Assembly (NCBI GenBank): GCA_934660865.1 | Contig: CAKUIA010000011.1 | Location: 1 to 32,000 of the forward strand | DNA length: 32,000 bases | From: an uncultured Opitutales bacterium | GTDB lineage: Bacteria; Verrucomicrobiota; Verrucomicrobiia; Opitutales; Intestinicryptomonadaceae | Reading direction: 5' to 3' | In this document: in pieces, positions 10,821-30,959 of the stretch | How the letters are laid out: every line of letters starts with the position of its first letter | How positions within the stretch are numbered: position 1 is the first letter of the stretch | Notes under the pieces: model-generated | Told to the model about the DNA's origin: nothing | What the model saw: only the letters and a program-made list of their open reading frames with translations | The model's database searches: none | Position numbers and translations under genes: made by a program

Positions 10821-10832
10821 ATATTTTAAAAG

Positions 10833-10866: not shown

Positions 10867-10898
10867 TAAATCTTTGTTATAGGCAGCGGTTTTAGGCG

Positions 10899-12632: not shown

Positions 12633-12686
12633 CATTTTAAATTTGCAAAATTTCGGCAAATCCGAAATAATACGCCGCAAATAATT

Positions 12687-13421
12687 ATGGAAGACGGCAT
12701 TTCAAGCATAAGAACCGAAAACCTTGTAAAGGAATACGGTGCGCGCAGGGTTGTAAAGGGCGTAAATGTAAACCTTAAAGCTGGCGAAGTTGTGGGGCTT
12801 TTAGGCCCGAACGGCGCGGGCAAAACAACAAGCTTTTACATGATTGTCGGCTTGGTAGAGGCTACTTCGGGCAGGGTGTTTTTAGACGGCAAAGACATCA
12901 CAAAAGTGCCGATGTATAAAAGGGCGAGAATGGGCATTGCCTATCTGCCGCAGGAGGCTTCGGTTTTCCGCAAACTAAGCGTATACGACAATATTGCCGC
13001 CATTGCCGAAACTTTGGATATGCCGCGCAGGGAAATCAAGCCCTATTGCGAAAAAATGCTGGGCGAGCTTAATTTGACGCACCTGGCAAAGCAAAAGGCG
13101 TTTACCCTTTCGGGCGGCGAGCGCCGCAGGCTTGAAATTACAAGGGCCCTTACCGCAAAACCGAAGTTCATACTTATGGACGAACCTTTCAGCGGGGTAG
13201 ACCCTATCAGCGTTGCCGAGGTTCAAGACATTATTTTGTCGCTAAAATCGCGCGGGATAGGCGTTTTGATTACCGACCACAACGTTAGGGAAACGCTTTC
13301 GATTGTAGACAGGGCCTATCTTATACACGAAGGCAAGGTTTTGCGCGAGGGCACAAGCGACTTTTTGGTAAACGACGAAACCAGCCGCAAATTCTATTTG
13401 GGCGAAAACTTTTCGATGTAG
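12687..13421 (+). CDS. lptB: LPS export ABC transporter ATP-binding protein LptB, 244 aa
   Basis: Walker A GPNGAGKTT, LptB-typical TTSFYMIVGL and MGIAYLPQEASVFRKLSV, signature LSGGERRR, Walker B FILMDEPFSGVDP. Confidence 0.9.
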   Translation: MEDGISSIRTENLVKEYGARRVVKGVNVNLKAGEVVGLLGPNGAGKTTSFYMIVGLVEATSGRVFLDGKDITKVPMYKRARMGIAYLPQEASVFRKLSVYDNIAAIAETLDMPRREIKPYCEKMLGELNLTHLAKQKAFTLSGGERRRLEITRALTAKPKFILMDEPFSGVDPISVAEVQDIILSLKSRGIGVLITDHNVRETLSIVDRAYLIHEGKVLREGTSDFLVNDETSRKFYLGENFSM

Positions 13422-13425
13422 CAGT

Positions 13426-14385: not shown

Positions 14386-17300
14386 TTATACAAAAAGCGG
14401 AGCCTTGCTCGAGTCGCTTTTAAAGACGCGCATTGTCTATCTCGACGGCGCAATGGGTACTTTAATCCAAAAACGCAAATTGGGTGAAAGCGATTACCGC
14501 AGCGCAAAGTTCGACATTCTGCAAAATTCGCAAATAGAGCTTAAGGGCAATGCCGACTTGCTTAACCTTACGCGTCCCGACGTTTTAAGCGACATATTCG
14601 AGTCGTACTACAATGCGGGTTCCGACATTGTTACAACGTGCACATTCGGTGCAAATTCGGTTGTTCAGGCCGAATACAAAACCCAAAGCCTTGTGCGCGA
14701 AATGAATATAGAGGGCGTGCGCCTGGCAAAAGAGGCTGCAAAAAAATACGCAACCGAAAATTCTCCAAAATTTGTGGCGGCCTCCATTGGACCTATGAAC
14801 AAATCGGCGTCTATTTCGCCCGATATGGCAGACCCTTCGAAGCGCAGCGTTTCGTTCGACGAGCTTATGGCTGCCTACAAAGAGCAAATGGCTGCTTTAA
14901 AGGAAGCCCGGGCCGACTTGTTTTTGCTTGAAACCACTTTCGACGGGCTAAACGCAAAGGCTGCAATTTACGCGTATTTAGACCTTTTCGAAAACGAATC
15001 CGAACGCATACCAATAGCCGTTAGCATGACGGTTTCCGACGCTTCGGGCAGAATTTTAAGCGGGCAGACAATAGAGGCCTTTTACAATTCGATAGAGCAC
15101 TGCAACCCGCTATTTGTGGGGCTTAACTGCTCGCTTGGTGCCGACAAAATGAGGCCCTACATAGAAACCTTCAACCGCATAGCAAAGTGCTACACGCACT
15201 GCTATCCCAATGCGGGGCTGCCAAATCCGCTTTCGGAATCGGGCTACGACCAAACGCCCGAAATGACGGCAACCTATGTGGCCGAATACGCAAAGGAGGG
15301 CCTTTTAAACGTTATAGGCGGCTGTTGCGGAACAACGCCCGAGCACATTGCAAAAATAATAGAATACACAAAAGACTGTGCGCCGCGCACTCCGCAAAAG
15401 GGCGATTTTTCGCTTAAGGTAAGCGGTCTGCAACAGCTTGTAATACCCGAAAACAACGCCCCCTTTGTTTTGGTGGGCGAGCGCAACAACGTTATGGGTT
15501 CGGGCATTTTCCGAAAGGCGATAAAAGAGGGGCGCTATCACGACGCAGTTGCAATTTCGCGCAAGCAGATAGAAAACGGCGCAAACGTAATCGACATAAA
15601 TTTCGACGAGGCCATGCTCGACGCCGTAGAGTGTATGCGCCACTTCTTGCGCCTGCTTGAAAGCGAGCCCGAAATTTCGAAAGTGCCCTTTATGATAGAC
15701 TCGTCTAACTGGGCGGCGTTAAAGGAGGGGCTAAAAAACGTTCAGGGCAAGCCCATTGTAAATTCGCTTAGCCTTAAAGAGGGCGAGGAAACTTTCCTTA
15801 AAAAGGCAAAAGAGGTAAAAAAATACGGGGCGGCCCTTGTTGTAATGGCCTTCGACGAAAACGGACAGGCCGCAACCAAAGAAGACAAAGTAAGAATTTG
15901 CCGCCGCGCCTATCGGCTTTTGGTCGACAAAATAGGCTTTAACCCCTGCGACATAATTTTCGACGTAAACGTTCTTACAATAGGAACCGGCATTGCCGAG
16001 CACAACGACTACGGCAAAAATTTTATAGAGGCGGTAAGGGAGGTAAAACAACTTTGCCCGCATTGCAGAACAAGCGCGGGCGTAAGCAACCTAAGCTTTG
16101 CATTTAGGGGCAACAACCCCTTGCGCGAGGCAATGCACAGCGTATTTTTGTTCCACGCAATAAGGGCGGGGCTTGATATGGGCATTGTAAACGCGGGCGT
16201 TCTGCCGCCCTACGACTCTATAAAGCCCGAATTAAGGGAGCTGCTTGAAGACCTGATTTTCAACAAACGCCCCGATGCCACCGAAAGGGTTATGGCAAGA
16301 GCCACCGATTTCCACTCCGAAAAAAAGGCCGAGGCTGTTTTAGACAGGCCCCTTACGTTGGAGGAAAAGCTGCAGCACTGCTTTATAGACGGCGACGATT
16401 CCAAAATTGCCGAATACGCCGAAGAATATTACGCGCAGCTTAAAGACCCGTTGGCTGTTATCGAAGGCCCTCTTATGGGGGCCATGAAGATTGTGGGCAA
16501 ACGTTTCGGCGAGGGCAAAATGTTCTTGCCGCAGGTTGTAAAGAGCGCGCGCGTAATGAAAACCGCGGTGGAAACACTCGAAAAATATATGTCGAACAAG
16601 TCCGAAAACGGCGGCAACGGCAAATTTTTAATAGCCACCGTAAAGGGCGATGTCCACGACATAGGCAAAAACATTGTTGCCCTTGTAATGGGCTGCAACA
16701 GCTACGCCGTGCGCGATCTTGGCGTTATGGTCGACGCCCAGACGATTTTGGACCAGGCCAAAGATTTCAACGCCGATTTAGTCGGTATGAGCGGCCTTAT
16801 TACGCCGTCTTTGGCCGAAATGGAAAATACCATAAGGCTTTTCGAGCGAAACGGTATGACGGTTCCCATTGTTGTTGGCGGCGCCTCCACAAGCGAGCTG
16901 CATACGGCGGTAAAGCTTGCCCCGCTATATTCGGGGGCGGTAATGCGCGTAGAAGACGCTTCTACAATGTCGGTTGCCGCCGCCGACTTAACGGGCAAAA
17001 ATTCGGCCGAATTTATAGCAAAGCTTAAAGAGTCGCAGCGCGTTTTAAGGGAAAACTTTTTGGCTAAAAAGGCAACCGCCGCGCTAAAAAGCCTGGCCCA
17101 GTCGCGTTTAGACGCCCCAAAACACGATGTTCAAGAGCCCGAAATAGCCGCCTTCGACGCAAAGTTGTTCGAGGTAGACTTCAACAAGGTTTTAAAATAT
17201 TTGCGCTACGAGCCTTTCTTTGCCGTGTGGCATTTTAAGGGCATAACCTGCGCAAATTGCTCGGAAAATGCCGAGGCTAAAAAGCTTTATAAAGACGCGC

Positions 17301-17932
17301 AAAATGTGCTTGCTCAAATGGCCGAAATTGCAAAGCCCAAAGTTGTTGCGGGCATTTACGCCGCCGAAAAATCCGGCACCGACGACATTGTTTTAAAAAG
17401 CCAATCGGGCAAAACAACAAAGTTGTGCTTTTTTAGAAATCAGGAAAGCCACAATTTGTGCCTGGCAGACTTTGCAGGAAAAAAAGCGGGGCTTTTTGCG
17501 CTTACGGCGGGCGGCGAGCTTTGGCTGGCTGCGCAAAAAATAAAGGAGTCGGGCAACGAATACGAGTATATGCTTTGGCATACGCTTAGCGACCGGATTG
17601 CCGAAGCTTGCGCAGAATATTTCCATACCGAAATTTTGTGCAACGGCGGCAAATTTGGAATAAGGCCGGCAATAGGCTACCCGATTTGCCCCGACCACAC
17701 CCAAAAGACCGAAGTTTTTGAAATGCTAAATGCAACCGAGTTGGCGGGTATTTCGCTTACCGAAAATTATGCAATGACGCCGCCTTCAAGCATATGCGCA
17801 TTGTGGCTGCCCGACAAAACCGCAAAATATTTCGATTTGGGCAAAATTTCCGAAGAGCAAATAAAAGACTTTTGCGCAAGGCGAAACATTCCCGCAGAGC
17901 TTTTAAAGAAATATTTGGCAATAAGCTTATAA
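14366..17932 (+). CDS. metH: Cobalamin-dependent methionine synthase MetH, 1188 aa
   Basis: Hcy-binding domain (YLDGAMGT, GGCCGTTPEHI), pterin-binding barrel, B12-binding motifs GDVHDIGKN (DxHxxG) and MSGLITPS, and a C-terminal AdoMet activation domain (RPAIGYPICPDH). ATG 14366 overlaps the hprK stop by 20 nt, so the exact start is uncertain. Confidence 0.92.
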   Translation: MAGTICNYTKSGALLESLLKTRIVYLDGAMGTLIQKRKLGESDYRSAKFDILQNSQIELKGNADLLNLTRPDVLSDIFESYYNAGSDIVTTCTFGANSVVQAEYKTQSLVREMNIEGVRLAKEAAKKYATENSPKFVAASIGPMNKSASISPDMADPSKRSVSFDELMAAYKEQMAALKEARADLFLLETTFDGLNAKAAIYAYLDLFENESERIPIAVSMTVSDASGRILSGQTIEAFYNSIEHCNPLFVGLNCSLGADKMRPYIETFNRIAKCYTHCYPNAGLPNPLSESGYDQTPEMTATYVAEYAKEGLLNVIGGCCGTTPEHIAKIIEYTKDCAPRTPQKGDFSLKVSGLQQLVIPENNAPFVLVGERNNVMGSGIFRKAIKEGRYHDAVAISRKQIENGANVIDINFDEAMLDAVECMRHFLRLLESEPEISKVPFMIDSSNWAALKEGLKNVQGKPIVNSLSLKEGEETFLKKAKEVKKYGAALVVMAFDENGQAATKEDKVRICRRAYRLLVDKIGFNPCDIIFDVNVLTIGTGIAEHNDYGKNFIEAVREVKQLCPHCRTSAGVSNLSFAFRGNNPLREAMHSVFLFHAIRAGLDMGIVNAGVLPPYDSIKPELRELLEDLIFNKRPDATERVMARATDFHSEKKAEAVLDRPLTLEEKLQHCFIDGDDSKIAEYAEEYYAQLKDPLAVIEGPLMGAMKIVGKRFGEGKMFLPQVVKSARVMKTAVETLEKYMSNKSENGGNGKFLIATVKGDVHDIGKNIVALVMGCNSYAVRDLGVMVDAQTILDQAKDFNADLVGMSGLITPSLAEMENTIRLFERNGMTVPIVVGGASTSELHTAVKLAPLYSGAVMRVEDASTMSVAAADLTGKNSAEFIAKLKESQRVLRENFLAKKATAALKSLAQSRLDAPKHDVQEPEIAAFDAKLFEVDFNKVLKYLRYEPFFAVWHFKGITCANCSENAEAKKLYKDAQNVLAQMAEIAKPKVVAGIYAAEKSGTDDIVLKSQSGKTTKLCFFRNQESHNLCLADFAGKKAGLFALTAGGELWLAAQKIKESGNEYEYMLWHTLSDRIAEACAEYFHTEILCNGGKFGIRPAIGYPICPDHTQKTEVFEMLNATELAGISLTENYAMTPPSSICALWLPDKTAKYFDLGKISEEQIKDFCARRNIPAELLKKYLAISL

Positions 17933-21767: not shown

Positions 21768-21850
21768 CCGAAAATAGCGTTTAATGTATCGGCGCGTTCG
21801 ACTTGAGGTAAAAAATCGAGCGTTTGAGGGAAAGCACTATTTTCTGGGTA

Positions 21851-21911
21851 AAAAAAGCCCCTTTGCAATGGGTTTGCATTATGGTTGCAAGTTTGTTGCA
21901 AGGGGCTTTTT
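21851..21911. terminator. Bidirectional hairpin terminator between convergent tlyA and the phage-like operon
   Basis: The sequence reads A6-GCCCCTTTGCAA(21857-21868), a 27-nt loop, then TTGCAAGGGGC(21896-21906)-T6. The stem has one bulged T. The A-run and T-run flank it symmetrically. Confidence 0.7.
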
Positions 21912-21916
21912 TGTGG

Positions 21917-22909
21917 CTAGAAGCACTTGACGAATTTTGTCTTTTTTATGTAGATTTGTGGTGCGAATTTGGAATCGATTTCGCTGGCGGCTATGGCGTA
22001 GTATTCGCCGTTGGCAATTCTGGCCTTCCATTCGGCGACTGTGGGTACGGTTTGTGTTGTTATTTTATCCGTTTCAACCCCAGAAGCCGTAAATACGACA
22101 AACTTGTCTGTTAGTGCAGGTAGAGTCGCTGTATACTCAATTTTAACGGCTGTTGGTCGAATTGTGTTTTTTGCGGCGGTAGCTTTGGCTTCTCTAATAA
22201 TATATGTATCACGGGAAACATATGTACCATCAACATACAACGTAGCATTTAAAAACCATGAAATTTCTCGCGAACTAAGAGAAGCACCGCGACCACCATT
22301 AAATATACCAGAAAAGGCAGGCGTCTTCATCGTCCCAGCGTCTTTATCAATTTCAATAATATTAACTGTTGGGCACTCAAGGGGATAATAGTTCGAAGAT
22401 TTAGAAGCCCCATAAAATCTAATACTATCGCCTGCAGCGAATTGCTTAACAATGTCCGTCCCCAAGTGCAAAAGAAACGTATTGTTTGCGGCGTCGAAAT
22501 CGCACAAGCCACTTTTTGTAGTTATAAGCACTTTTAATGCGCCAGACGGATCTTCGATGCCTGGGTGCCACGCCACTTCCGCTGTCCACGTCTCGAACAC
22601 CAAATTGGGCGCATAGCCATATAGCTCCGTTACCTTGTAAATATCTTGCCAACGGGTAACGGTTGCAACACTTTCGCTTATCAAAACCATGTTTTTTGCG
22701 GTAATTTGTTCTTTAACCGAGCCTGTAAATATAGGTTGGCCGCCCGCAGAAAGCATATTTGTATCAAGCGCGCGACCTACTCGGGTAGAAAAGGAATCTC
22801 TTAATATATAATAGTCTAGTTCCACCCAAAAATGGGTTTTATTGCCGTATTGTTCAAACTCAAAGTTGCGTCGAAAAAGGCTGTCATATTGCGGTATTGT
22901 AAAGTCCAT
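21917..22909 (-). CDS. Hypothetical phage protein in the post-tape-measure (distal tail protein) position, 330 aa
   Basis: The ATG at 22909 lies 1 nt after the TMP stop (TAA-T-ATG). The call is positional only, because no family motif was recognised by eye. Confidence 0.55.
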   Translation of the reverse strand: MDFTIPQYDSLFRRNFEFEQYGNKTHFWVELDYYILRDSFSTRVGRALDTNMLSAGGQPIFTGSVKEQITAKNMVLISESVATVTRWQDIYKVTELYGYAPNLVFETWTAEVAWHPGIEDPSGALKVLITTKSGLCDFDAANNTFLLHLGTDIVKQFAAGDSIRFYGASKSSNYYPLECPTVNIIEIDKDAGTMKTPAFSGIFNGGRGASLSSREISWFLNATLYVDGTYVSRDTYIIREAKATAAKNTIRPTAVKIEYTATLPALTDKFVVFTASGVETDKITTQTVPTVAEWKARIANGEYYAIAASEIDSKFAPQIYIKKTKFVKCF

Positions 22910-22910: not shown

Positions 22911-25900
22911 TTATTTGCTTGTTGCGATGGTGTTTACAGTGCTTTTAAGTTGCGTAATTGTGGTTTTAGTTTCATCTAAAGTTTTCTGCATAGAGGTCAG
23001 TATTGCCACTAGCTTTGCCTCTTTTTCGCCCTCTGGAGTTTTATTTTTCTTCAGGTCAGATAATGCCGACGACAATTTTCCGTCGGCGACAGTGTCTTCT
23101 TTTTTGCTCGAACTCTCTGTCTTTTGCGGGGTTTTGCGTTCGGTTTTTACGCCAGCCATTGCGCCTGCGCGTTCGCCGACATTGTCTATAAAACGATTGG
23201 CGGACAATCGGAACTTATTGGGGTTATTATTACCCATTGACACTGTGCGATCGTCTTTTTCGCCCAAATGCGAACCCGTACGTTTGTCTAGAATATCCAT
23301 AGTTTTGCTGGCAGACAATCTAAAGCGGCTTTGACTATTGCTTTTGCCTGTTGTGGATTTTGCCGCTCTAGATTGGCGAAAATCTGCAAATGTTTGCCCT
23401 GTGTGAGTGCCGCCTGCGGCTTTCCATTCTTCGTAAAGCGACATACTTTTCGCCGAAACCGTAGCGGGTGCTCTTGGCGGTTTTGGGGGCGTCGGGCCTC
23501 TGCCGCCTGTAGAGGCGGGAACGCTGCCATAATAGCCTCCACCCGCGCCGCCTGCAGGCGCTGCATAGCCGCCTGTCTGCGGAGTTGCCCTGTTATTTTG
23601 GCGATCTTTATATGAATTTGTTTGCCTCATCATATCGGCAAGTTTTTCCTTGTCTTCGGCCGATACGCCATCAAGACCGCCGAGAGTACGCTTTATGTCG
23701 CGCTCTTCTTCCAACGCTTTGGCGGCTCCAGTCTTGCCCTCTGCTTTTAGCTGTTCAATTTTGTGCGTTAAAATTATATCTTCGATTTTTGCCTGTGCAT
23801 TTTTGGCAATGTTTTGTTTTTGCGCTTCATCGGTTGCCTGCCTTTCTAGTGCCACACGTTGCTGGGCTTGGGTTATGGCATAGTCGTGAAGTTTTTTCAG
23901 TTCGTCGGCCGTCATATTTTCGCGGCGAAGAGAATCGAATATCTGTTCTTGTAGCTGCAAAATAGACTTTTTATCTTCAATAGCCTCTACAGCGCGGTTG
24001 CGGCCTTGTTTATCGTAATTTGCCGAATTTGCCTTTGCTTTTAGAATGTCCAGCTCAAGCTGGTTAAGGTTTTTTGAGTTTTTATATCTTGTCGACGACA
24101 AGTCCAATTCAAACTGTTCTACGGCAAGCTTGTTGTCGGCAATTTTATTGGCTTGGGCAACAAGGTTGTTATAATCTTCGGCCGTGCGGCACGAGGCTTT
24201 AAGGGCGTCTACCTGCTCTTTAACGATTTCGCAACGGCGCAGCTCCAGATTGGCCGCCTTTTGTGTAAGTTCTAGGCTTTGTGCTGTTTTTAGGTCGCCA
24301 TTCGTCTTTGCCTGAACGATTTTTATTTCCAAATCCTGCAATTTTGTGGCCGCTGCAAGCCGCCTGTCTTCGTTTTGGGCGGAGGCAATCTTGTCTACAA
24401 TGCCGACACGCATACGCTCGCTATTCAAGATTTGCTCGCTTTTTTGACGGGCTTCCTCGACAAGGGCGTTATACTCTTTTTCGGTGCGGCAAAGGGCTTT
24501 ACGGCTTGATATATACTCGCTTTGCAGCTGGTTTGCCCTAAGCAGCAAATCGTTTTGTATATATTCTTCGGTAAAGTCGTCGGAAGGGGTTTGGCCTTTT
24601 AGTGCAACAAGTTTTGAGTCTAAGTCTACCTTTTGGCTTTGCAGCTTTACAACCTGTCGCAACCGTTGTTCTTCGTCGGACGCTTGCAATAGGTTTAGGT
24701 ATTCCTTTTCCCGGGCAATGCGGTCTGTCTTTGCGGCGGCAAGACGTTGCTCGGTCGCCAAAAGTTGGCCTGCGTTGCCAGAATTGCGCGCGTTGTTTGC
24801 GGCCTTTTCGGCGGCGGCCAATTCATCGGTGGCCTTTTTAAGCATTTCAGCGGACTTTTTTAACGCTGTATTTGTGCCTGCTGCCTTTGCCGCTTCTTCG
24901 GCCGACTTTTCGCGGATTTTGGCAATGCTGGCTTCCGCTTCAACAAGCTTTTTGGCGGCAAGCGCGTCTAGGTTTTTTACGTCGGCAGCGGCTTTTTGAC
25001 GTTCCTGCAACTTTTCGATTTTTGCGCGGTAATTATCTAATTGGGCTTGCTCTTCTTTCGTGTAAACCTTGTAGGCTCCGCCTTGCCCGTAGCGCGTTTG
25101 CCCGTGCGAAGTGCCGTAGTTGCGTTGTTCGGTTTTTAATTTGGCGATTTCCGCCGCGACTTCGGCCGTGCGCTTTTTGTTGGCGTCGGCCGTAATGCCC
25201 CATTGTTTCAATGCGTCGATTTCGCTGTCAATCGCAGAGCGGTATTCTTCGGAATCGCGTATGTTCTCCTTATATGTCCTTTCGGCCTGTCCGCGAAAAT
25301 ACGAGAAAGCCATTGTAAGCGCGCTTACAGCCGTTATTGCGACAGACAAACCAAGCATAATGGGATTGGCTTTGATTGTCGCATTAAGCCCTTTTACTGC
25401 AATGTCTGTACCCAAAACGGCATTGCTTACAAGCTTAATTTGCGTAATCAAACTCGGCAGGCCGCCGATTTTTTGAAAAGTCAACGCAACGGCAAGCGTT
25501 GTAAGCGAGCCAGTAAGTATTGCCGTAAGCCCCTCCGAAGCCGAGAGTATTTCGCACATGCCTTTTAAAAGAGAGGCTACGTCTACCGCAACGGGCGCAA
25601 ACACACTGCCCGCAGTTTCGGCCAAATCTCCCCAAGCATTTGCCGCCTGTTTTAACTTGCCCGCCGAAGTTTGCGCCAAATCCTTGGCCTGCGCAAAGCC
25701 AGACGACGCCAGTTGTTGCGCCTTTGCGAGCTTTTCGGTTTCGGACTTGCAGTTGCGCAGGCTGGGTATTTGTTCCTGTAGATTTTGAGTATATCCAAAA
25801 GTAAGCGATACGGCCGCACGCGTTGCTGATTTTAAATCGGTACCCAACGCAGTCGACAAGCCGATTGCACTTTTGATTACCTGATTCATTTGGTTCGGAA

Positions 25901-26471
25901 GAACGCCTATCGAAGCCGCAAAGGATTGGATTTCCAAAATCTGCTCGTCGCCGTAGGTTGTAATGCGCTGGATTTCGGAGGCAAAGCTTTGCATAATGGG
26001 CAACACATCCGATACGTTGCCGCCCTGCGAGCGTATTGCGGCAGCAAGCTTTGTAACGGCCATTTCCTGCCTACCGAACGCATCTATGGATTTTGTTATG
26101 GCACTTGGCAAAGTCGTGGCAAAACGTGCGGCCATTGCGCCAAGCTCCAGATAAAAGCCAGTAAGCACGTCTTTTGTCGAAGCCGTTTGCTGCTTAAAGC
26201 TTGCAGTTTTGTCTTGGGCGTTTTTTAAGCCGTCGGCCGCTTTGTCGGTAGATTTTTTAAGTTCGCCCGAAGCTACCGTTTGAGCCTTTATCGCGTCGGT
26301 CAGCGAATTGCCCGTGTCGATAAGTGCCTGTGCCGACTTTTCAACGCCCGAAAATGTTGCCTTGTTTAATTTCGAAATTTGGCCGTTTAGCGCATTAAGC
26401 TCGGCAACAAGCTCTTTGATTTTATCAAACTCGGCTTTGGCCTCTATATTTATGTTGTAAGTCTCTGCCAT
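22911..26471 (-). CDS. Phage tail tape measure protein, 1186 aa
   Basis: N-terminal coiled coil, then a TP901-type TMP core (ITTYGDEQILEIQSFAASIGV..., AIGLSTALGTDL), hydrophobic segments (LTAILTGSLTTLAVALTF, ANPIMLGLSVAITAVSALTMAF) and a long Ala/Lys/Glu/Gln coiled coil. It lies immediately downstream of the frameshifted chaperone pair. Confidence 0.88.
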   Translation of the reverse strand: MAETYNINIEAKAEFDKIKELVAELNALNGQISKLNKATFSGVEKSAQALIDTGNSLTDAIKAQTVASGELKKSTDKAADGLKNAQDKTASFKQQTASTKDVLTGFYLELGAMAARFATTLPSAITKSIDAFGRQEMAVTKLAAAIRSQGGNVSDVLPIMQSFASEIQRITTYGDEQILEIQSFAASIGVLPNQMNQVIKSAIGLSTALGTDLKSATRAAVSLTFGYTQNLQEQIPSLRNCKSETEKLAKAQQLASSGFAQAKDLAQTSAGKLKQAANAWGDLAETAGSVFAPVAVDVASLLKGMCEILSASEGLTAILTGSLTTLAVALTFQKIGGLPSLITQIKLVSNAVLGTDIAVKGLNATIKANPIMLGLSVAITAVSALTMAFSYFRGQAERTYKENIRDSEEYRSAIDSEIDALKQWGITADANKKRTAEVAAEIAKLKTEQRNYGTSHGQTRYGQGGAYKVYTKEEQAQLDNYRAKIEKLQERQKAAADVKNLDALAAKKLVEAEASIAKIREKSAEEAAKAAGTNTALKKSAEMLKKATDELAAAEKAANNARNSGNAGQLLATEQRLAAAKTDRIAREKEYLNLLQASDEEQRLRQVVKLQSQKVDLDSKLVALKGQTPSDDFTEEYIQNDLLLRANQLQSEYISSRKALCRTEKEYNALVEEARQKSEQILNSERMRVGIVDKIASAQNEDRRLAAATKLQDLEIKIVQAKTNGDLKTAQSLELTQKAANLELRRCEIVKEQVDALKASCRTAEDYNNLVAQANKIADNKLAVEQFELDLSSTRYKNSKNLNQLELDILKAKANSANYDKQGRNRAVEAIEDKKSILQLQEQIFDSLRRENMTADELKKLHDYAITQAQQRVALERQATDEAQKQNIAKNAQAKIEDIILTHKIEQLKAEGKTGAAKALEEERDIKRTLGGLDGVSAEDKEKLADMMRQTNSYKDRQNNRATPQTGGYAAPAGGAGGGYYGSVPASTGGRGPTPPKPPRAPATVSAKSMSLYEEWKAAGGTHTGQTFADFRQSRAAKSTTGKSNSQSRFRLSASKTMDILDKRTGSHLGEKDDRTVSMGNNNPNKFRLSANRFIDNVGERAGAMAGVKTERKTPQKTESSSKKEDTVADGKLSSALSDLKKNKTPEGEKEAKLVAILTSMQKTLDETKTTITQLKSTVNTIATSK

Positions 26472-26679: not shown

Positions 26680-27251
26680 CTATTTCCTGTCGTCCCTCAA
26701 TGCGTTATTTATACGGTTGAGGGCTTTTTCGTCTCCTATAACTGCGGCATTTGCGTCGAATGCGGAGGCTGTATCCTCGGCACGCATGCGGCGCACAGCC
26801 TTTGCCATATAGCTAAGTCTCAGCGGCGACAAATCCAGTACCGCCTCCCACGTCATAGCGCAGTTTGCACAAAGCCATGCTACGAGTTCGCAGAATTGCC
26901 CCCAAGTTGGGGGTTGTTCTCCTGCTGGGTTTGGCCGAGTATTTGGGCTTGTATTCTGGTTGCCGCGACTTTCCGCTGCAACCAACCCGAAAAAGGGACG
27001 CGGTTAAGCTCGTGGATTTTTTCGAAAAGCCTGCCGCTATCGTCGGGGTATATCATATCCACTTCCTCACGCGTCAAGTCTGTGGCAAATTCCACCAATT
27101 CCGACTCCAACGCAAAAAGCGCAGCATATTCGGCAAAAGCGCGCACAGGCAGGCATTTAACTTTAACTGTTTTTTTGCCGTTTACGGGCTTGTTTAAATC
27201 GACATTTTCGTATCCTAAAAATGTCGCAAGGTCGTTGTCTTTATTGTCCAT
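26680..27251 (-). CDS. Tail assembly chaperone, predicted -1 frameshift fusion product (gpGT-like), about 190 aa
   Basis: ORF 26680..26985 is in the -1 frame relative to 26880..27251 (codon phases 0 and 2 mod 3 on the minus strand). It stays open back through the slippery site at 26991-26997. Confidence 0.55.
26694..26730 (+). terminator. Intrinsic terminator candidate for the antisense small ORF
   Basis: Stem CCCTCAA(26694-26700)/TTGAGGG(26717-26723) with inner CGT/ACG pairs, followed by CTTTTTC (26724-26730). On the minus strand no T-run follows it, so it is directional. Confidence 0.5.
26880..27251 (-). CDS. Tail assembly chaperone (lambda gpG-like position), 123 aa
   Basis: Lies immediately upstream of the TMP-proximal overlapping ORF. 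Start taken as ATG 27251 (MDNKDNDLATF...). The track's 27299 start is a TTG. The protein is acidic and small, as expected for a gpG analogue. Confidence 0.6.
   Translation of the reverse strand: MDNKDNDLATFLGYENVDLNKPVNGKKTVKVKCLPVRAFAEYAALFALESELVEFATDLTREEVDMIYPDDSGRLFEKIHELNRVPFSGWLQRKVAATRIQAQILGQTQQENNPQLGGNSANS
26958..26997 (-). promoter_or_regulatory. Programmed -1 ribosomal frameshift signal (slippery heptamer plus spacer plus hairpin)
   Basis: On the minus strand the heptamer C CCT TTT (26997-26991) is in the zero frame of the G-like ORF (X XXY YYZ). A 7-nt spacer follows, then the hairpin GGTTGC-a-GCG [GAAAGT] CGC-g-GCAACC (26983-26958), which has 9 bp with one mismatch. Confidence 0.6.
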
Positions 27252-27270
27252 ATCGCTGTTTTTAATTGCG

Positions 27271-27300
27271 TTTGCAAAGGCGTTGCAACGCCCATGCAAA
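27271..27300. repeat. 30-bp near-perfect palindrome at the junction between the exported-protein cassette and the chaperone gene
   Basis: The sequence is TTTGCA-aa-GGCGTTGCAACGCC-ca-TGCAAA. The core 14-mer at 27279-27292 is a perfect palindrome, and the outer 6-mers pair. Confidence 0.85.
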
Positions 27301-27311: not shown

Positions 27312-28022
27312 CTATTTACCCTGCAATTTTTCGTCGATTAAACGCGAGGTTAAGACCTTGCCGATTGCCTGTACCCGCAGGAAATTGGCGTCGTCTAGCT
27401 TATTGTGGGTTATGTACCAATTTTCCAATTCTTTGCATTTTGCCTTTGCTTCGGCAGCAGGCATATCAAGCAAGCCGTCGATTACCGCATTTACATACAG
27501 GCTTTGTGGCATAACTTCAGCAGCGGGTAAGGTACGCATATACGCTTTGTCGCCGAACGAATTTGCCGTAAACAACCTTTCGAACGCGCCCAGCTGTTTG
27601 CCGTTAATCTTAAAATCTGCGGCCTTTAGCTCGTCATACCAATCTTGCGATAAGTATTTAGCAACTTTACCGCTTCGAAGATTGCAAATTACGGCATCGC
27701 TGGCGGTCATTTCGTCGCCGTGATTGTCGTACAATTTTGCAAAGACCATTCGCAAATTTTCATTCTGTTCGATTTGCTCTTTAGTTAGTATTTTAGACTT
27801 GCGCACTTCGTCGGCCGAAAGCGCTGCCAACTCAGATGTTTTCCATGGGTTAAACGCCGCTAATACGTCTGCCTTGTTGTTTTCTGCGTAGGCCATAAGT
27901 GCGGTAAATTCCGCGCCAGTCGCGCGCAATGCGCCGTATTCGGCGGCAAGTTCGGTTGCCGACTTTGCAAAACACAAAACCGACAGAGTTAATGCTATGG
28001 TTGTAGATATTATCTTTTTCAT
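27312..28022 (-). CDS. Exported hypothetical protein (Sec signal peptide), 236 aa, predicted mostly helical
   Basis: N-terminus is MKKIISTTIALTLSVLCFA|KSATE: a basic n-region, a hydrophobic core and a CFA cleavage-like site. The start overlaps the upstream stop as TAATG. AAAGGA lies upstream. Confidence 0.7.
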   Translation of the reverse strand: MKKIISTTIALTLSVLCFAKSATELAAEYGALRATGAEFTALMAYAENNKADVLAAFNPWKTSELAALSADEVRKSKILTKEQIEQNENLRMVFAKLYDNHGDEMTASDAVICNLRSGKVAKYLSQDWYDELKAADFKINGKQLGAFERLFTANSFGDKAYMRTLPAAEVMPQSLYVNAVIDGLLDMPAAEAKAKCKELENWYITHNKLDDANFLRVQAIGKVLTSRLIDEKLQGK

Positions 28023-28315
28023 TATTTGTCCTTTATTGTTGATTTTAAAATTTCGAAATTTGCCAATTTTTCAAAGCCGCTTGATTGTCCAAAATCCCTA
28101 AATATGTACCATAAATAGGTATTAGGCTTTGCCGTGCCGCTTGTGGCTAAGATTTCGGGCGACTTTACGCTATCCAAATATATAACGCCGTTTACAAGTC
28201 GCTCGGCTTCCTTAGCGGTTTGCAACTCGGCTTGTACGGTTTTATAGTAATCAATCAAGTCGTTTGCCGTTGCCGACATTGCCGACAACAAAAGTATTAT
28301 CAGTAATTTTTTCAT
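28022..28315 (-). CDS. Small exported hypothetical protein (Sec signal peptide), 97 aa
   Basis: N-terminus is MKKLLIILLLSAMSATA|NDL. A strong SD (AGGAGGT) lies upstream of the ATG. The gap to the upstream gene is 2 nt. Confidence 0.7.
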   Translation of the reverse strand: MKKLLIILLLSAMSATANDLIDYYKTVQAELQTAKEAERLVNGVIYLDSVKSPEILATSGTAKPNTYLWYIFRDFGQSSGFEKLANFEILKSTIKDK

Positions 28316-28317
28316 TG

Positions 28318-29229
28318 TTATTTTACCTCCTTAAAATCTCCGTAGCCCTCAAGACGCACAGGCCGCCAAAGTTTCTCCGAGAAAAAATATTCGCCTGTGG
28401 TTGTCGTTTGTCGCCAGCAGACAAAGGTATTCTCATCGTTCAGAAAAATCTCATGCAGGTAGTCGCCCCAAACAACCCACTTATAGCCTGCAGCCGTGTT
28501 GGCAGCACTCGAGTTGTCGCCTTTGCCTTGCTTTGGGTAGTTGACGGTATCCAGCGAATTTGCAGCCTTATAAACTGGTACTGCTCGCTCGGTAGTCGAG
28601 TTATAGTCTGGGTAAATCCAAATGCCCGAAATCGCCAAATATTTACCAATGGTTGCCCCAATCGAAGAGTTAAAGTTGGTAAACTTTTCGCGTTCCCCCC
28701 AACACCCACCCGCAGAATTATAAGTATAGTTTTCCCAGTAATATATACTGGGCGATTCGTCGATTAGTTCGGGGTGTAACTTGCGTACGTAGGCAAGCTT
28801 TAAGCCGATTGTCGAGGTAAAATAAATCAAATTGCCGAACTTATCTATGCCCTTAACTTCGCCGTCTGTCCACGCGCGCATGACTACATATTTGTCATTA
28901 TAATAAACAGAATAGCTCGTTATTATAGTCCCATTGGAATTAACTGTTCTTTGCGTTTTTCCCGACGTGTCTTTGTAATAAAAAATGTTGGGATTATAAG
29001 AATAAGAACGATTTTCCGAATGGACGGTATACGCATCTTCGGGGCTGGGTGTTGTATCGATAAAAATTCGAATATCCTGCCGAAAAGCGCGCACATTCTT
29101 TTCAAAGAAAACTGCCTTTTGTGGCTGGGCGATTTCGCTTGTTATTGTGTTAAATGTTACGGGTTTTAAAGCCGCAAAGCAGCCCATTGCAGGAAATAGG
29201 CATAGTAGTAATATTTTAAGAAAGCGCAT
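28318..29229 (-). CDS. Exported hypothetical protein (signal peptide, possibly a lipoprotein), 303 aa, Tyr/Asn/Trp-rich, probably beta-rich
   Basis: N-terminus is MRFLKILLLCLFPAMGCFA|ALKP, with a Cys at position 17 in a weak lipobox-like context. A strong SD (GAGGAGGA) lies upstream. The start overlaps the upstream ORF by 14 nt. Confidence 0.7.
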   Translation of the reverse strand: MRFLKILLLCLFPAMGCFAALKPVTFNTITSEIAQPQKAVFFEKNVRAFRQDIRIFIDTTPSPEDAYTVHSENRSYSYNPNIFYYKDTSGKTQRTVNSNGTIITSYSVYYNDKYVVMRAWTDGEVKGIDKFGNLIYFTSTIGLKLAYVRKLHPELIDESPSIYYWENYTYNSAGGCWGEREKFTNFNSSIGATIGKYLAISGIWIYPDYNSTTERAVPVYKAANSLDTVNYPKQGKGDNSSAANTAAGYKWVVWGDYLHEIFLNDENTFVCWRQTTTTGEYFFSEKLWRPVRLEGYGDFKEVK

Positions 29230-29488
29230 TGTATTCCTCCTCTGTAAGGTAAGTTGGGCTTAAATTGCCGTTTTCGTCTTCGTCGACAACTATATAGCAA
29301 CATTTATTCGTGGCGTTTCGCACGCGCAGTTTTGCGGCGGTTTGCACTGGTATTTGCGCCGAAATTTCTTTTGCCAAAAACGTCGCCAATGCCGACATTG
29401 TAAGCCGACCACGCCCGCAAATAAGCGAGTCGGACAAATCGGGTGAAACCGCGTCAAATTCGGCCAAATCTTTTGCTGGAAAATCCAT
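29216..29488 (-). CDS. Hypothetical phage protein, 90 aa
   Basis: The ATG at 29488 lies 2 nt after the upstream stop, and the ORF is co-oriented in the operon. No motif was recognised. Confidence 0.45.
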   Translation of the reverse strand: MDFPAKDLAEFDAVSPDLSDSLICGRGRLTMSALATFLAKEISAQIPVQTAAKLRVRNATNKCCYIVVDEDENGNLSPTYLTEEEYNALS

Positions 29489-29490: not shown

Positions 29491-29982
29491 TTAAAAGGGT
29501 TCGTTGATTGTTATAGCGAAATCCCCAACGCTTAGGACATTGCCGCCAATCAAAATGGCGGTGCTGTTTGCGAGGATTTCGCCCGTCTTAAATTGATACT
29601 TAATGTCGGTGTTTATGCCGACTTCATTCGCAATTTCGGCCGACACCAATACTGCTGCATTAAACTGCAAAAACTTGTTTAACATAGTCTTCACAGTCAA
29701 AACGCCTTTGTATTGGCTGTCGGTATATTGCGACATTTGCGCGATATGGCGCACCGCAAAAAGCTCGGCGCTGCCATAGTTTGCAAATTGTCTGCTTACG
29801 GTTACGCCAATGTTAAACGCAATGCCATCGCCGCGCGGTATTGTTACGGGGCATTTTACGCCGATAATGTCTAAATCCTCATGATTTGGTAGAGACAAAC
29901 TCGGCTTTGCAACCGCAAGGGCGCAAACTCTGGCATCGGCGTCGGAGTTTGCGATTTCAATACTGCCAAGGCGTATGAACAT
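29491..29982 (-). CDS. Hypothetical phage structural-module protein, 163 aa
   Basis: Co-oriented, with an 11-nt gap after the putative major tail protein gene. No signal peptide. No motif was recognised. Confidence 0.5.
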   Translation of the reverse strand: MFIRLGSIEIANSDADARVCALAVAKPSLSLPNHEDLDIIGVKCPVTIPRGDGIAFNIGVTVSRQFANYGSAELFAVRHIAQMSQYTDSQYKGVLTVKTMLNKFLQFNAAVLVSAEIANEVGINTDIKYQFKTGEILANSTAILIGGNVLSVGDFAITINEPF

Positions 29983-29993: not shown

Positions 29994-30959
29994 CTAGTCG
30001 CCTGTGTTTTCGGTTTCGGTTTCAAACTCGAAGTCGGCACTTGCCGTGCCAATCGTAAGCTTGTTGTCGCCGTATTGGTCGCCATGCGCTTCGAATGTAA
30101 TTTCGTCCATAAGAGCGTCTTTTGCGGAGAACGTCGCTGTGGGATCCTTGCAGGCCGCCGATTTAAGCGTAAACAAAAAGTCCCCCTGTTTTGCCCCGCG
30201 CAACACCAAATCGGGATAGCTGGCTACTCCCGCAAACTTGCCGATTTCGTCTGTGGTTGTAATGCCCGTAAGTTTTTGCCAATTTGCAAGGCTTATGTTG
30301 CGCGGTTTAAACTTGGCCGACACCGATATGTCGGTAATGTTTTTGCCGTATTTAATTAAACGGTCGTTTTGCGCGTCTTCGGTAGATAGCGATATTTCAA
30401 TGCTTGCACCGTCGGTATCAAAATCTATGGCTGTATTGCCGCTGCCGTAAATGCCCAAACACCTAAGCATAAATTTGCCTGCGTCTTCAAGGTCGCCGAC
30501 TGTGGGTGCTGCGGTTAATTCGGTGGTCGTTACAAGCGGTGTAGTCGGGTTTAGAGGATCGGGGTATACAGTCCAACCGTGCTCGCCCAAAGGCAAATTT
30601 GCACCGAAAGTAATCGAGCCTATTGTATCGTGGATAGCGGGTGCAAACGCCCACTTAACCCATTTGCCCGAGGCAACGCGGGCAACGATGGACATATTTT
30701 CGACTTTAGGCAAACGCGTACCCTTTACGAGCGACAACTCTTTAAAAAGCGCGTCTGTATTGCTAAAAGCCACGGGCGAGCCCTTAATCGAAATCGACTG
30801 GTCTGTTAATATGTCGCCCGCCTTTATCGAGTTAGACGTCGCTACGTCCAATTTTGTCGAGGTTTTGCTAACCTTAATCGAGTCTTTTATGTACAGCACA
30901 GAGCTCCCGATGAACAGAAACGCCGGTGCTTTAATGTCTTCTAATGGGTATGCTTTCAT
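29994..30959 (-). CDS. Putative major tail (tube) protein, 321 aa (positional call)
   Basis: Follows the connector and terminator-position genes and is preceded by AAGGA. The protein is Thr/Ser/Gly-rich, probably beta-rich, and has an acidic C-tail (FEFETETENTGD). No family motif could be confirmed by eye. Confidence 0.4.
   Translation of the reverse strand: MKAYPLEDIKAPAFLFIGSSVLYIKDSIKVSKTSTKLDVATSNSIKAGDILTDQSISIKGSPVAFSNTDALFKELSLVKGTRLPKVENMSIVARVASGKWVKWAFAPAIHDTIGSITFGANLPLGEHGWTVYPDPLNPTTPLVTTTELTAAPTVGDLEDAGKFMLRCLGIYGSGNTAIDFDTDGASIEISLSTEDAQNDRLIKYGKNITDISVSAKFKPRNISLANWQKLTGITTTDEIGKFAGVASYPDLVLRGAKQGDFLFTLKSAACKDPTATFSAKDALMDEITFEAHGDQYGDNKLTIGTASADFEFETETENTGD

Follow-up and report, generated by a model that had tools for sequence, protein, structure and literature searches.

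Tailed-phage virions are thought to be finished in the cytoplasm. In lambda (stf-tfa), P2 (H-G), Mu (S-U) and T4 (gp37-gp38/gp57A) the fibre is encoded together with downstream chaperones, and Peptidase_S74 domains serve as C-terminal intramolecular chaperones of fibres and spikes. A receptor-binding virion protein with a Sec signal peptide is known from the filamentous phages, whose pIII is assembled onto the particle outside the cytoplasm. The phage proteins Llp and Cor are small, about 60-80 aa. The gene for Llp of T5 adjoins that for pb5 on its downstream side, and the protein works from the periplasmic face of FhuA (PMC9586334); the gene 15 moron of HK97 sits between the tail chaperone and tape measure protein (TMP) genes (PMC3594210). 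In the literature searched we found no described phage biology for phages of gut Verrucomicrobiota, and nothing relevant on Opitutales prophages or on tail fibres that bear signal peptides.

The window, a 32,000-nucleotide stretch from an uncultured Opitutales bacterium, carries a prophage of a lineage with Mu-like relatives. The original prediction described three consecutive genes for exported proteins of 303, 97 and 236 aa (families F303, F97 and F236) in its tail operon, and the three ORFs were seen with the N-termini and junctions it had quoted (Table 1). Read from the sequence, the upstream 90-aa ORF (w90) overlaps the F303 gene by 14 nt, the F303 and F97 genes are separated by 2 nt and the F97 and F236 genes overlap in TAATG. 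The G/GT chaperones were likewise found beside the trio as a G ORF, a -1-frame T ORF and an in-frame slippery heptamer (CCCTTTT, 26997..26991) that is kept in 8 of 8 related G genes, followed by a 1186-aa tape-measure-like protein. This protein is Ala/Glu/Lys-rich with central hydrophobic segments as judged by eye, and every sipho-type locus keeps it. Conservation in the block is highest for the gene of the putative tube protein, which had no match in Pfam, PHROGs or PDB. The neighbouring p163 is fast-evolving, with 25-34% identity where the tube protein has 73-82%, and p330, also fast-evolving, is presumably a tail-tip protein, after which host genes start immediately.

Table 1. Genes of the prophage tail region, from upstream to downstream.
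Feature	Position	Strand	Basis
321-aa putative major tail (tube) protein	29994..30959	-	highest conservation in the block; no match in Pfam, PHROGs or PDB
163-aa protein (p163), between putative tube gene and stub	29491..29982	-	no family match
w90, 90-aa fibre stub, no signal peptide	29216..29488	-	N-terminal motif, position
F303 gene (303 aa)	28318..29229	-	ORF; AF2 pLDDT 85.6
F97 gene (97 aa)	28022..28315	-	ORF; HMM
F236 gene (236 aa)	27312..28022	-	ORF; AF2 pLDDT 90.9
Tail assembly chaperone G and -1-frame T extension	26680..27299	-	frame offset, heptamer
1186-aa tape-measure-like protein	22911..26471	-	after G/GT; size; composition
330-aa protein (p330), last prophage gene	21917..22909	-	no family match

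Expression signals and composition were assessed gene by gene. Among 21 phage and host genes checked, a perfect AGGAGG was present only at the F303 and F97 genes, in keeping with the strong Shine-Dalgarno sequences reported for them; a 185-aa gene scored 5/6 in the same check. GC content was 43.3%, 38.4% and 46.0% for the 303-, 97- and 236-aa genes, compared with 46.3% for the phage region, 47.3% for the host and 48.7% for the TMP gene. By 60-nt line the 97-aa gene gave 0.38, 0.45, 0.47, 0.40 and 0.20, the last being a partial line. The dip noted earlier therefore exists but is small (38-46% versus 46% for the phage region) and less than the 27-40% first given, and composition is a weak argument for a foreign origin of the trio. 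All three genes are under purifying selection, with dN/dS against the closest relative of 0.12 (F303), 0.18 (F97) and 0.05 (F236); for w90 the value was 0.04. A scan for sigma-70-like signals, which does not cover Verrucomicrobiota promoter types, gave no convincing promoter or terminator bracketing the trio. Together with genes that overlap or abut their neighbours, this speaks against the suggestion that the trio is expressed independently of the late operon.

To evaluate export, signal peptides were scored with a home-made heuristic for n-, h- and c-regions plus an AXA site, using as Sec (SPase I) criteria a positive n-region, a hydrophobic h-region of 7-15 residues and small residues at -3 and -1. 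Signal-peptide-like N-termini were scored in 76 of 89 F303, 47 of 48 F236 and 18 of 18 F97 homologues, and in 5 of 176 control ORFs. The 13 F303 homologues failing the heuristic are mostly truncated gene calls and otherwise near-misses, and several are visibly signal-like. The uncharged stretch has a median of 17-18.5 residues across the three families, which is the length of a signal peptide and not of a membrane anchor. By this heuristic the Sec-type signal peptides seen in the three window proteins are thus conserved across each family. Cleavage in the window is predicted between CFA and A after residue 19 (F303), between ATA and N (F97) and between CFA and K (F236), and the AXA site followed by K is conserved in the F236 family. 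Lipidation of F303 at Cys17 had also been proposed. With a lipobox defined as [LVI][ASTVI][GAS]C closing the signal peptide and conserved in the family, the context of Cys17 in the window protein is AMGC, with residues at -3 and -2 unusual for a lipobox. The Cys is confined to the closest relatives and there is no family-wide lipobox, and we therefore rejected a lipoprotein reading of F303; F97 and F236 carry AXA sites.

The trio had been reported to hold no recognisable domain, and this was borne out in Pfam, PHROGs, NCBIfam, PADLOC, PDB sequences and BFVD and by Foldseek. A tblastn search with the 303-, 236- and 321-aa proteins against 50,697 GenBank phage records gave no match. F303 consists of a Sec signal peptide, a motif conserved at the mature N-terminus, a patch of variable sequence (about residues 69-115) and a beta-rich C-terminal domain that is conserved and in which D122, E124, K126, D129, H152, D157, C176, S211, R215, W254, Y257, Q274 and E280 are invariant. 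The C-terminal domain is 40-55% identical across very different phages, and F303 is the most diverged gene of the tube-to-TMP block between close relatives. There are 89 homologues of F303, yet a set of 1.84 billion proteins contained just 57 cluster representatives. The AF2 model of the monomer is confident and shows a globular beta domain with no obvious intertwined trimer, and Foldseek found no fold match for it in PDB or BFVD. The architecture of a signal peptide, a fibre and a beta-rich C-terminus also brought to mind an outer-membrane beta-barrel or autotransporter; this was rejected, as Foldseek gave no barrel matches and the terminal aromatic signal is absent. F97 has a signal peptide, a linker of variable length that by its sequence alone looks coiled-coil-like, and an aromatic motif conserved at the C-terminus (NTYxWYIWxDF...GFxKLE); with an HMM made from 9 orthologues, F97 was found as the next gene after F303 in 18 locus records. 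F236, which is always downstream of F97 and is duplicated in several phages, has a signal peptide followed by an all-alpha solenoid of 14 helices in the AF2 model, with no significant PDB match and weak TPR- or 14-3-3-like matches at TM 0.2-0.3.

The order F303-F97-F236 was identical in about 20 loci from sipho-, myo- and podo-like and large phages, and the three genes form one functional unit. All seven trio loci from genome assemblies come from Opitutales/Opitutia or Candidatus Merdousia MAGs, and the module is also carried on 120-160 kb contigs that have replication genes and resemble large virulent phages. In every backbone examined it adjoins fibre genes. The gene upstream of F303 matches phrog_12796 in L001 (259 aa, 1e-12) and Gp10_C in L018 (457 aa, 3e-19), and in L044 (232 aa) its match is limited to the N-terminal ~120 residues of fibre families of 437-504 aa (9e-18); judged by these matches, the gene preceding F303 is a tail fibre gene or a shortened one. 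In L018 two long conventional fibre genes lie upstream of F303, which makes F303 there an addition and not a replacement.

In the window this upstream gene is w90, which begins with the motif DLxxFxAVxxxxxDxLIxGRGRxTxxxL, ends in a small beta-type domain (...YIVVDEDENGNLSPTYLTEEEY) and immediately precedes F303 in L016 and in every sipho-type locus. Apart from one protein at a contig end (L025), the C-terminal domain of w90 turned up only in proteins encoded immediately before F303, and w90 is counted as a fourth member of the module. A likeness of this domain, seen by eye, to 113-aa myophage proteins or to ORFs of 77-82 aa was dropped after HMM and jackhmmer searches came back empty. A programmed frameshift that would join the stub and F303 was rejected, as frame offset and spacing vary among loci.

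Sister phages that lack the trio were compared next to this arrangement. Six sipho-type loci (L019, L023, L024, L027, L037 and L039) keep the order tube, p163, slot, G/GT and TMP, with p330 present in the four of them whose contig extends that far. The slot holds a protein of 388-681 aa without a signal peptide, followed by an ORF of 77-82 aa, and the N-terminus of the slot fibre (MRNLEEKEIKQFSEFTEVTPESSQNLITDKGRFTVGALF) matches the w90 family, having the N-terminal motif in common with it. The original prediction took the cassette to be inserted at an otherwise uninterrupted junction; the sisters carry a fibre and a small ORF there and not an empty junction. These loci identify the slot that separates the putative tube gene from G/GT as the tail-fibre locus of the lineage, and show the four-gene module (w90, F303, F97 and F236) as an alternative allele of a locus that otherwise holds a long fibre and a small ORF.

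This arrangement bears on whether the trio is foreign cargo. Morons are recognised by deviant composition and simple addition to the genome; here GC is 38-46% versus 46%, and the slot in relatives is filled by a long fibre. The weak composition shift, the lack of transcription signals in our scan and the comparison of loci with and without the trio led us to reject a foreign insert or moron. It is also highly improbable that the trio serves lysogenic conversion as an exported adhesin or fibre that helps the lysogen and is expressed apart from the late operon. Exported proteins in a prophage tail region, like Lom of lambda, and the slight GC dip in the 97-aa gene would suit such a role, but the genes overlap or abut their neighbours with no bracketing promoter or terminator found, the module also occurs in the virulent-looking 120-160 kb contigs, it replaces a fibre and is no simple addition, and no outer-membrane secretion component is encoded.

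A second pair of phages, E217-like myophages, allowed F303 to be aligned with a fibre that is not exported. The proximal fibre of L052 is 74% identical to that of L001 over the first ~180 residues. In L052 it is followed by a 692-aa protein and a 91-aa ORF, both without a signal peptide, and L001 has F97 and F236 where L052 has the 91-aa ORF. Residues 4-35 of the 692-aa protein align to residues 23-54 of the L001 F303 (50% identity, E=8e-6), which begin directly past the predicted cleavage site between SFA and Q. The 692-aa protein is also collinear with the exported P0179 in four segments, and a long-fibre profile aligns to 270 aa of P0179 (E=3e-18). P0183, an exported long form of F303, is 38% identical to the L037 fibre over 127 aa (E=3e-19). 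Repeats follow the signal peptide in P0143 (about six tandem repeats of ~37 aa) and in P0152 (~430 aa of repeat-rich, fibre-like sequence), and in L006 the non-exported 176-aa protein upstream of F303 has a repeat region in common. Profile comparison of F303 with the sipho long fibres gave nothing except shared inserted domains. A junction motif common to these fibres and the F303 N-terminus was discarded at a profile-profile probability of 0.16, and the label LamG-like for the shared fibre domain was dropped as Pfam gave no match.

From these comparisons F303 is very probably an exported protein of the fibre locus that is homologous to fibres. As expected of a distal tail fibre, it is encoded downstream of a proximal or attachment protein in the fibre locus and is homologous to non-exported fibres; a distal fibre is not expected to carry an export signal, which by the heuristic nearly all full-length F303 members do. 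Compared with non-exported distal fibres, F303 gains a Sec signal peptide at its N-terminus and, at the other end, a conserved domain with no known fold. It had been argued that the three proteins are exported and hence unlikely to be virion components. The export signals are conserved as scored here, but the second step is doubtful, given that F303 is homologous to non-exported distal fibres from the predicted cleavage site on. The chance that F303 ends up on the virion falls a little short of even.

The reading we favour, at a little below even odds, takes F303 as a distal fibre that reaches the periplasm along with two helpers and is joined to the stub on the virion at lysis. Put more broadly, and with a probability of about 0.4, a widespread group of tailed phages, mainly of gut Opitutales, may export the distal fibre and its two helpers by Sec, with the fibre maturing in the periplasm and attaching to a virion-borne stub only at lysis. 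Late in infection the stub would be assembled onto the tail in the cytoplasm. Sec would export F303, F97 and F236 and their signal peptides would be cleaved off, baring at the F303 N-terminus the motif with which the non-exported distal fibre of the sister phage starts. F97, with its coiled-coil look, and the alpha-solenoid F236 would be periplasmic folding or assembly helpers, encoded at the usual position of fibre chaperone genes. Holin lesions would merge cytoplasm and periplasm at lysis, and mature F303 could then dock on the stub or the proximal fibre that the virion carries, providing the receptor-recognising part. The strict gene order across four phage types, the stub C-terminal domain found only beside F303, the signal peptides conserved in three families and the fact that the trio stays at the fibre locus all count for this reading. 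Export of a virion fibre is not known to us from any tailed phage, which makes for a low prior. Against it also count the globular AF2 monomer, the addition of F303 in L018 and the finding that none of the ~190 family proteins retrieved fuses the F303 domain to a non-exported fibre. A fibre usually varies most at its receptor-binding tip, and the conserved F303 C-terminal domain with its many invariant charged residues is more in line with an enzyme or a constant interaction domain.

Such an enzyme could be a secreted glycan or peptidoglycan depolymerase or a bacteriocin-like toxin, with catalysis in the C-terminal domain, fibre-derived N-terminal modules for targeting, and F97 and F236 as periplasmic inhibitors or immunity proteins that restrain F303 until lysis. 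We consider this improbable. It would account for a signal peptide and variable binding modules joined to a domain that has D, E, K, H, C, S and R among its invariant residues, and for downstream genes whose products are small and, by the heuristic, exported. No endolysin was recognisable in the phage regions inspected, and in the myo- and podo-like phages genes for holin-like and lipoprotein products come directly after the module. However, the domain has no enzyme-family match in sequence or fold, same-backbone sisters do without F303 and carry a fibre and not an enzyme instead, and the Mu-like backbone has its lysis-like cassette beyond the head genes, ~19 kb from the trio in contig coordinates.

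The same neighbourhood bears on envelope remodelling for release, another role originally suggested. Three predicted periplasmic proteins, one seemingly coiled-coil, could form a spanin-like or outer-membrane-disrupting complex, and the module adjoins lysis-like genes in L001, L006, L044, L048 and L051. Spanins pair an anchored i-spanin with an o-spanin lipoprotein next to holin and endolysin genes; the trio has cleavable signal peptides as scored by the heuristic and not a membrane anchor or lipobox, and no lipoprotein is encoded beside it in the window. The same genomes have separate genes for a TM protein and a lipoprotein, as expected of a lysis cassette, and in L046 lipoprotein and TM proteins are encoded close to the terminase gene and a long way from the trio. 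When the lysis-like genes lie away from the fibre locus, as they do in the Mu-like backbone, the trio is found at the fibre locus, and it is dispensable in sister phages. A role as a lysis or egress accessory is therefore disfavoured and extremely improbable.

Superinfection exclusion or receptor masking, also put forward at the outset, is still a live rival but not now the best supported. An exported fibre derivative, F303, would act with F97 and F236 in the periplasm or envelope of an infected or lysogenic cell to bind, block or destroy the phage receptor and so prevent superinfection or readsorption, and a module inherited with the receptor-binding locus would keep the specificities matched, as with T5 Llp and Cor. 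We regard this as unlikely, yet it draws on several observations: the module lies beside fibre or receptor-binding genes in every backbone, the trio is predicted to be periplasmic, T5 Llp (PMC9586334) and the HK97 gene 15 moron (PMC3594210) provide precedents, F303 has ligand-binding-type domains in common with virion fibres and is the gene that diverges most among close relatives, and in L018 it coexists with complete fibres. Each known exclusion protein of this kind is one small lipoprotein or membrane peptide, whereas here a fixed set of three includes a fibre-like protein of 250-800 aa, and it is not obvious what long shaft repeats would do in a periplasm of ~25 nm. Exclusion leaves unexplained why the regular distal fibre beside the trio is missing or shortened in two independent backbones, and why the mature N-terminus of F303 retains the opening motif of a non-exported fibre. 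There is also no family-wide lipobox, no PADLOC match and no sign of independent transcription.

A fibre locus with secretion signals on its distal fibre and helpers challenges the view that virions are completed only in the cytoplasm. If the exported-fibre reading is true, it would be an undescribed extracytoplasmic step in tailed-phage assembly, and the sister phages with an ordinary non-exported fibre in the same slot offer a ready-made natural comparison. If F303 is instead a fibre-derived receptor blocker, it would represent a new and far more elaborate class of exclusion system drawn from the phage's own receptor-binding domains. Either way, three protein families (F303, F97 and F236), or four with w90, are defined that had no match in the libraries searched, and a host-recognition locus is marked for phages of gut Verrucomicrobiota.

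Among described systems, Llp and Cor resemble the trio in acting in the periplasm and being encoded next to a receptor-binding or fibre gene (PMC9586334), as the trio is predicted to be exported and adjoins such a gene. Unlike these single small lipoproteins, the trio comprises three non-lipoproteins of 97-796 aa, one of them, F303, homologous to fibres. HK97 gene 15 is also an envelope-protein gene within a siphophage tail operon beside chaperone and TMP genes. It encodes one small inner-membrane protein, has a promoter and terminator of its own and deviant GC, and is an addition to the genome, whereas the trio is tied to its neighbours by translational coupling, is conserved across phage types and takes the place of a fibre. 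Filamentous-phage pIII differs in that inoviruses extrude at the membrane while tailed phages assemble in the cytoplasm, and it has no sequence relationship to F303. With fibres ending in Peptidase_S74 F303 shares the placement of a conserved C-terminal domain behind variable receptor-binding modules, but its own domain is without a sequence match. The stf-tfa type of module is similar in its position at the fibre locus and in its layout of a backbone-specific proximal part, an exchangeable distal part and one to three helper genes; in both, the distal protein is modular with shaft repeats and the locus is mosaic and fast-evolving relative to the tube and TMP genes. The trio differs from it in the Sec signal peptides on the distal protein and both helpers, in families that match no known fibre or chaperone family, and in the conservation of F303 at its C-terminus and not at the N-terminus alone.

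Sister siphophages were recovered from metagenomes using the 321-aa putative major tail protein of the window (tube) as the query. Their common backbone consisted of p185, p150, tube, p163, a slot, the tail assembly chaperones G/GT, the tape-measure protein (TMP) and, if the contig was long enough, p330, the numbers being the lengths of the window's proteins. In about half of them the slot held a 90-aa ORF (w90, the stub) and the genes for the exported 303-, 97- and 236-aa proteins (families F303, F97 and F236, the trio). The slot of six sisters without the trio (L019, L023, L024, L027, L037 and L039; a seventh contig, L022, ended inside the long fibre gene) was filled by one protein, 388-681 aa long and lacking a signal peptide, with a 77-82 aa ORF after it. 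The N-termini of this long protein (MRNLEEKEIKQFSEFTEVTPESSQNLITDKGRFTVGALF...) and of the stub were members of one family; in the long protein a long alanine-rich stretch, coiled-coil-shaft-like by eye, came next and then distal domains. Because the trio-less sisters carry a long fibre here and its N-terminus is common with w90, the slot is the fibre locus of this lineage and comes as two alleles, one with a long fibre and the small ORF, the other with the short stub and the exported trio. The original prediction had the trio inserted into a normally uninterrupted junction, which does not fit a slot that holds a fibre when the trio is absent. In every sipho-type locus and in the large contig L016, a w90 member immediately preceded F303, and the small C-terminal domain of this family was detected nowhere else. 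Identity among relatives was 24-56% from p163 through F236 and in p330, compared to 73-82% for the tube protein, and of the genes from tube to TMP, F303 had diverged most when the window was compared with its closest relative. The p330 and p163 proteins match the fibre module in speed of evolution (24-47% identity, against 73-99% for the tube protein), p330 being only 47% identical even in the closest relative, and may be host-interaction parts of the tail tip.

Features of the window (tail-block genes in transcription order) and of the phage loci compared with it
Sequence	Feature	Coordinates	Strand	Remark
window	185-aa ORF (p185)		minus	tail block
window	150-aa ORF (p150)		minus	tail block
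window	321-aa ORF (tube)		minus	tail block
window	163-aa ORF (p163)	29491-29982	minus	adjoins stub
window	90-aa ORF (w90, stub)	29488..29216	minus	directly upstream of 303-aa gene
window	303-aa gene (F303)	29229..28318	minus	trio
window	97-aa gene (F97)	28315..28022	minus	trio
window	236-aa gene (F236)	28022..27312	minus	trio
window	G-like ORF with -1-frame extension		minus	after trio
window	slippery heptamer CCCTTTT	26997..26991		in G gene
window	1186-aa tape-measure-like protein		minus	
window	330-aa gene (p330)	21917-22909	minus	last tail gene
window	prophage end	21800-21917		against tlyA
window	hairpin (47 nt) with T-run	21859-21905		between tlyA and last phage gene
window	TlyA-like methyltransferase, RNase G, RodA, MetH, HPr kinase, SecDF, others			host genes beyond p330
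window	tRNA-Ser (CGA)	466-555		host part
L046	rest of contig	1-13922		
L046	lipoprotein and small TM proteins	2363-4333		upstream of terminase gene
L001	~145-aa lipoprotein	13101-13532		directly after module
L006	~145-aa lipoprotein	12776-13219		directly after module
L012	MKNEELR-type ORFs	14-457, 1951-2124		examples
L013	MKNEELR-type ORFs	4776-4928, 6183-6359		examples
L009	TMP and p185 fragments	13696-17781		Opitutales prophage
L051	tandem F303 paralogues	1977-5292		myophage

The junctions described originally (14-nt overlap, 2-nt gap and TAATG overlap) matched the sequence exactly, and of 21 phage and host genes inspected, only those for the 303-aa and 97-aa proteins had a perfect AGGAGG, as expected from the strong Shine-Dalgarno sequences claimed for these two. 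The predicted dip in GC was present; it was smaller than the earlier spot counts implied and is modest, as the 303-, 97- and 236-aa genes had 43.3%, 38.4% and 46.0% GC compared to 46.3% and 47.3% in the phage region and the host part, respectively. All three genes were under purifying selection relative to the closest relative (dN/dS 0.12 for F303, 0.18 for F97 and 0.05 for F236). The assignment of the downstream genes as G/GT chaperones was borne out by a T ORF in the -1 frame and a CCCTTTT heptamer. This heptamer was conserved in frame in 8/8 related G genes (window, L003, L005, L007, L015, L024, L027 and L037) and lay 118-151 nt ahead of the stop codon of G.

Signal peptides were scored using an explicit n/h/c-region and AXA heuristic. 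Positive scores were obtained for 76/89 homologues of the 303-aa protein (the remainder being mostly N-terminally truncated gene calls), 47/48 homologues of the 236-aa protein and 18/18 orthologues of the 97-aa protein, compared to 5/176 control ORFs. The uncharged N-terminal stretch had a median of 17-18.5 residues and is therefore of signal-peptide rather than membrane-anchor length, and cleavage motifs were kept within families, such as AXA/K in the 236-aa family. These scores support the proposed Sec signal peptides on all three proteins, and F303 is accordingly a predicted exported protein. The suggested lipidation at Cys17 of the 303-aa protein was not supported, the "lipobox" being limited to the closest relatives. 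As anticipated, no domain could be recognised in the trio: Pfam, PHROGs, NCBIfam and PADLOC gave no match for the three proteins or any neighbour, and GenBank phages and PDB sequences gave none for the three proteins. AF2 models of the 303-aa protein (mostly beta, pLDDT 85.6) and the 236-aa protein (all-alpha, pLDDT 90.9) were confident, but Foldseek searches of PDB and BFVD returned nothing significant. An exhaustive profile search of 1.84 billion proteins found just 57 cluster representatives of the 303-aa family. The families of this module, the stub included, match nothing in the libraries searched.

The clearest evidence that F303 is a fibre homologue, as judged by sequence comparison, comes from L052 and L001, a second natural pair of phages without and with the trio. 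These phages have a baseplate wedge protein in common and a proximal fibre 74% identical over the first ~180 residues. The next gene encodes a 692-aa protein without a signal peptide in L052, only 12 nt from the preceding gene, and F303 in L001. Residues 4-35 of the L052 protein (KFTPSENPTLSLSVNQDNELVAPTAEELLSAN) aligned to residues 23-54 of the L001 F303 (QFTPPSPAVSSVSVDSNNKLVAPTATQFLQAN) with 50% identity (E=8e-6), and this segment comprises the first residues past the predicted cleavage site (...SFA/Q). The homology of F303 to ordinary distal fibres thus begins where its predicted mature form begins. Downstream, L052 has a 91-aa ORF without a signal peptide and L001 has F97 and two F236 copies. 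The L052 protein was also collinear in four segments with P0179, one of five long F303 members (with P0143, P0152, P0183 and P0184) in which the signal peptide comes first, followed by tandem shaft-like repeats or extra domains and then the conserved F303 domain. A long-fibre profile covered 270 residues of P0179 (E=3e-18), and P0183 and the non-exported long fibre of L037 have a common domain (38% identity over 127 aa, E=3e-19). A non-exported 176-aa protein upstream of F303 in L006 has the repeat region of the long F303 forms. Myophages have a short tail fibre gene in this position, and a 232-aa protein of L044 matched just the first ~120 residues of fibre families 437-504 aa long. Given this homology to non-exported fibres, export probably does not rule out a link to the virion here, contrary to what was first assumed.

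F303 lies in the fibre locus, is accompanied by a shortened, non-exported proximal protein and is followed by two signal-peptide-bearing proteins where fibre chaperones normally lie. Combined with the fibre homology and export signals, this makes the most economical reading a distal fibre that is made outside the cytoplasm and docks on the stub at lysis, to which we assign a probability of about 0.45. F303 would still be a distal fibre, F97 and F236 would help it fold or assemble in the periplasm, and holin lesions would merge cytoplasm and periplasm, allowing it to dock on the stub. By rough estimate, micromolar periplasmic proteins could bind within seconds between inner-membrane permeabilisation and outer-membrane rupture. 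To our knowledge there is no precedent for an exported virion fibre in tailed phages. Several observations argue against such a fibre: the F303 C-terminal domain is conserved with many invariant charged residues, unlike a variable receptor-binding tip, AF2 confidently models the F303 monomer as a globular domain, none of the sequences retrieved had an F303 domain fused to a non-exported fibre, and L018 also has conventional long fibres. The invariant polar residues and an architecture of binding modules plus a conserved C-terminal domain would also suit a secreted enzyme or toxin with periplasmic inhibitors, but this is without homology support and we consider it improbable. Receptor masking or superinfection exclusion by the trio, suggested by its predicted periplasmic location and the adjoining receptor-binding genes, has precedents in T5 Llp (PMC9586334) and the HK97 gene 15 moron, located between the tail chaperone and TMP genes (PMC3594210). 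This is unlikely, as it does not account for a set of three genes, for the shaft repeats, for retention of the N-terminal motif or for the missing regular distal fibre in two backbones.

The phage lineage of the window appears to be Mu-like and transposable. L046, the rest of IMG/VR contig UViG_3300029711_000264 from a relative of this phage, encodes a large terminase, a Mu gp27-like protein, a RexA homologue and a 699-aa protein with a TniB/MuB-like AAA ATPase encoded after it. The prophage end in the window lies directly against tlyA with no tRNA nearby, and transposition would explain this placement against host genes. A hairpin with a T-run separates tlyA from the last phage gene, and the tRNA-Ser gene is unrelated to the prophage end. 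In P0149 (390 aa) an AAA_22/TniB-like domain is attached to the N-terminal half of an F303 protein; this fusion is probably not genuine but a chimera that arose in assembly where the two ends of a Mu-like genome were joined. A lipoprotein family (...AGC/ASTTITEYD...) directly follows the module in myo- and podo-like phages, and L046 has a homologue beside small TM proteins, in an apparent lysis cassette; none of the phage regions inspected had a recognisable endolysin. That the trio is a lysis accessory is scarcely credible, since in the Mu-like backbone the lipoprotein and TM genes are beside the terminase gene, past the head genes and ~19 kb from the trio, which stays with the fibre locus. 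Short ORFs starting MKNEELRMKN or MKNEELRIGI recurred within and around Opitutales MAG prophages (L009, L012 and L013), which suggests a small repeated DNA element. L009 shows signs of rearrangement or decay, in that an 82-aa TMP fragment precedes another, dissimilar TMP gene and a p185 fragment is duplicated.

Overall, the observation was confirmed and the original interpretation partly supported, the trio being coupled, novel and, by its predicted signal peptides, exported; trio plus stub are best filed as a new, putatively Sec-exported variant of the tail-fibre-plus-chaperone module. The backbones carrying the module differ widely and include, besides the siphophage lineage of the window, E217-like myophages of ~41-43 kb (L001, L044 and L051), a podo-like phage with an SU10-type capsid protein from an Opitutales MAG (L006), contigs of 120-160 kb (L016 and L018) and an AT-rich phage (L048). 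All seven genome-assembly loci (7/7) were from Opitutales/Opitutia or Candidatus Merdousia MAGs; one record title names a Hadza sample and several related metagenome contigs were labelled human gut. A lysogenic-conversion moron is highly improbable, as the trio is translationally coupled with no transcription signals found, large phages that look virulent also carry the module, and it takes the place of a fibre instead of being an addition. Wherever the flanking sequence sufficed, the order F303-F97-F236 was kept; the most divergent loci had, at the F97 and F236 positions, signal-peptide-bearing proteins of matching size that were missed by HMMs. F236 was duplicated in some loci and F303 once. 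This single case, in L051, has tandem F303 paralogues of 541 and 538 aa, both with signal peptides, before a single F97 and a single F236, an arrangement like that of phages with alternative fibres.
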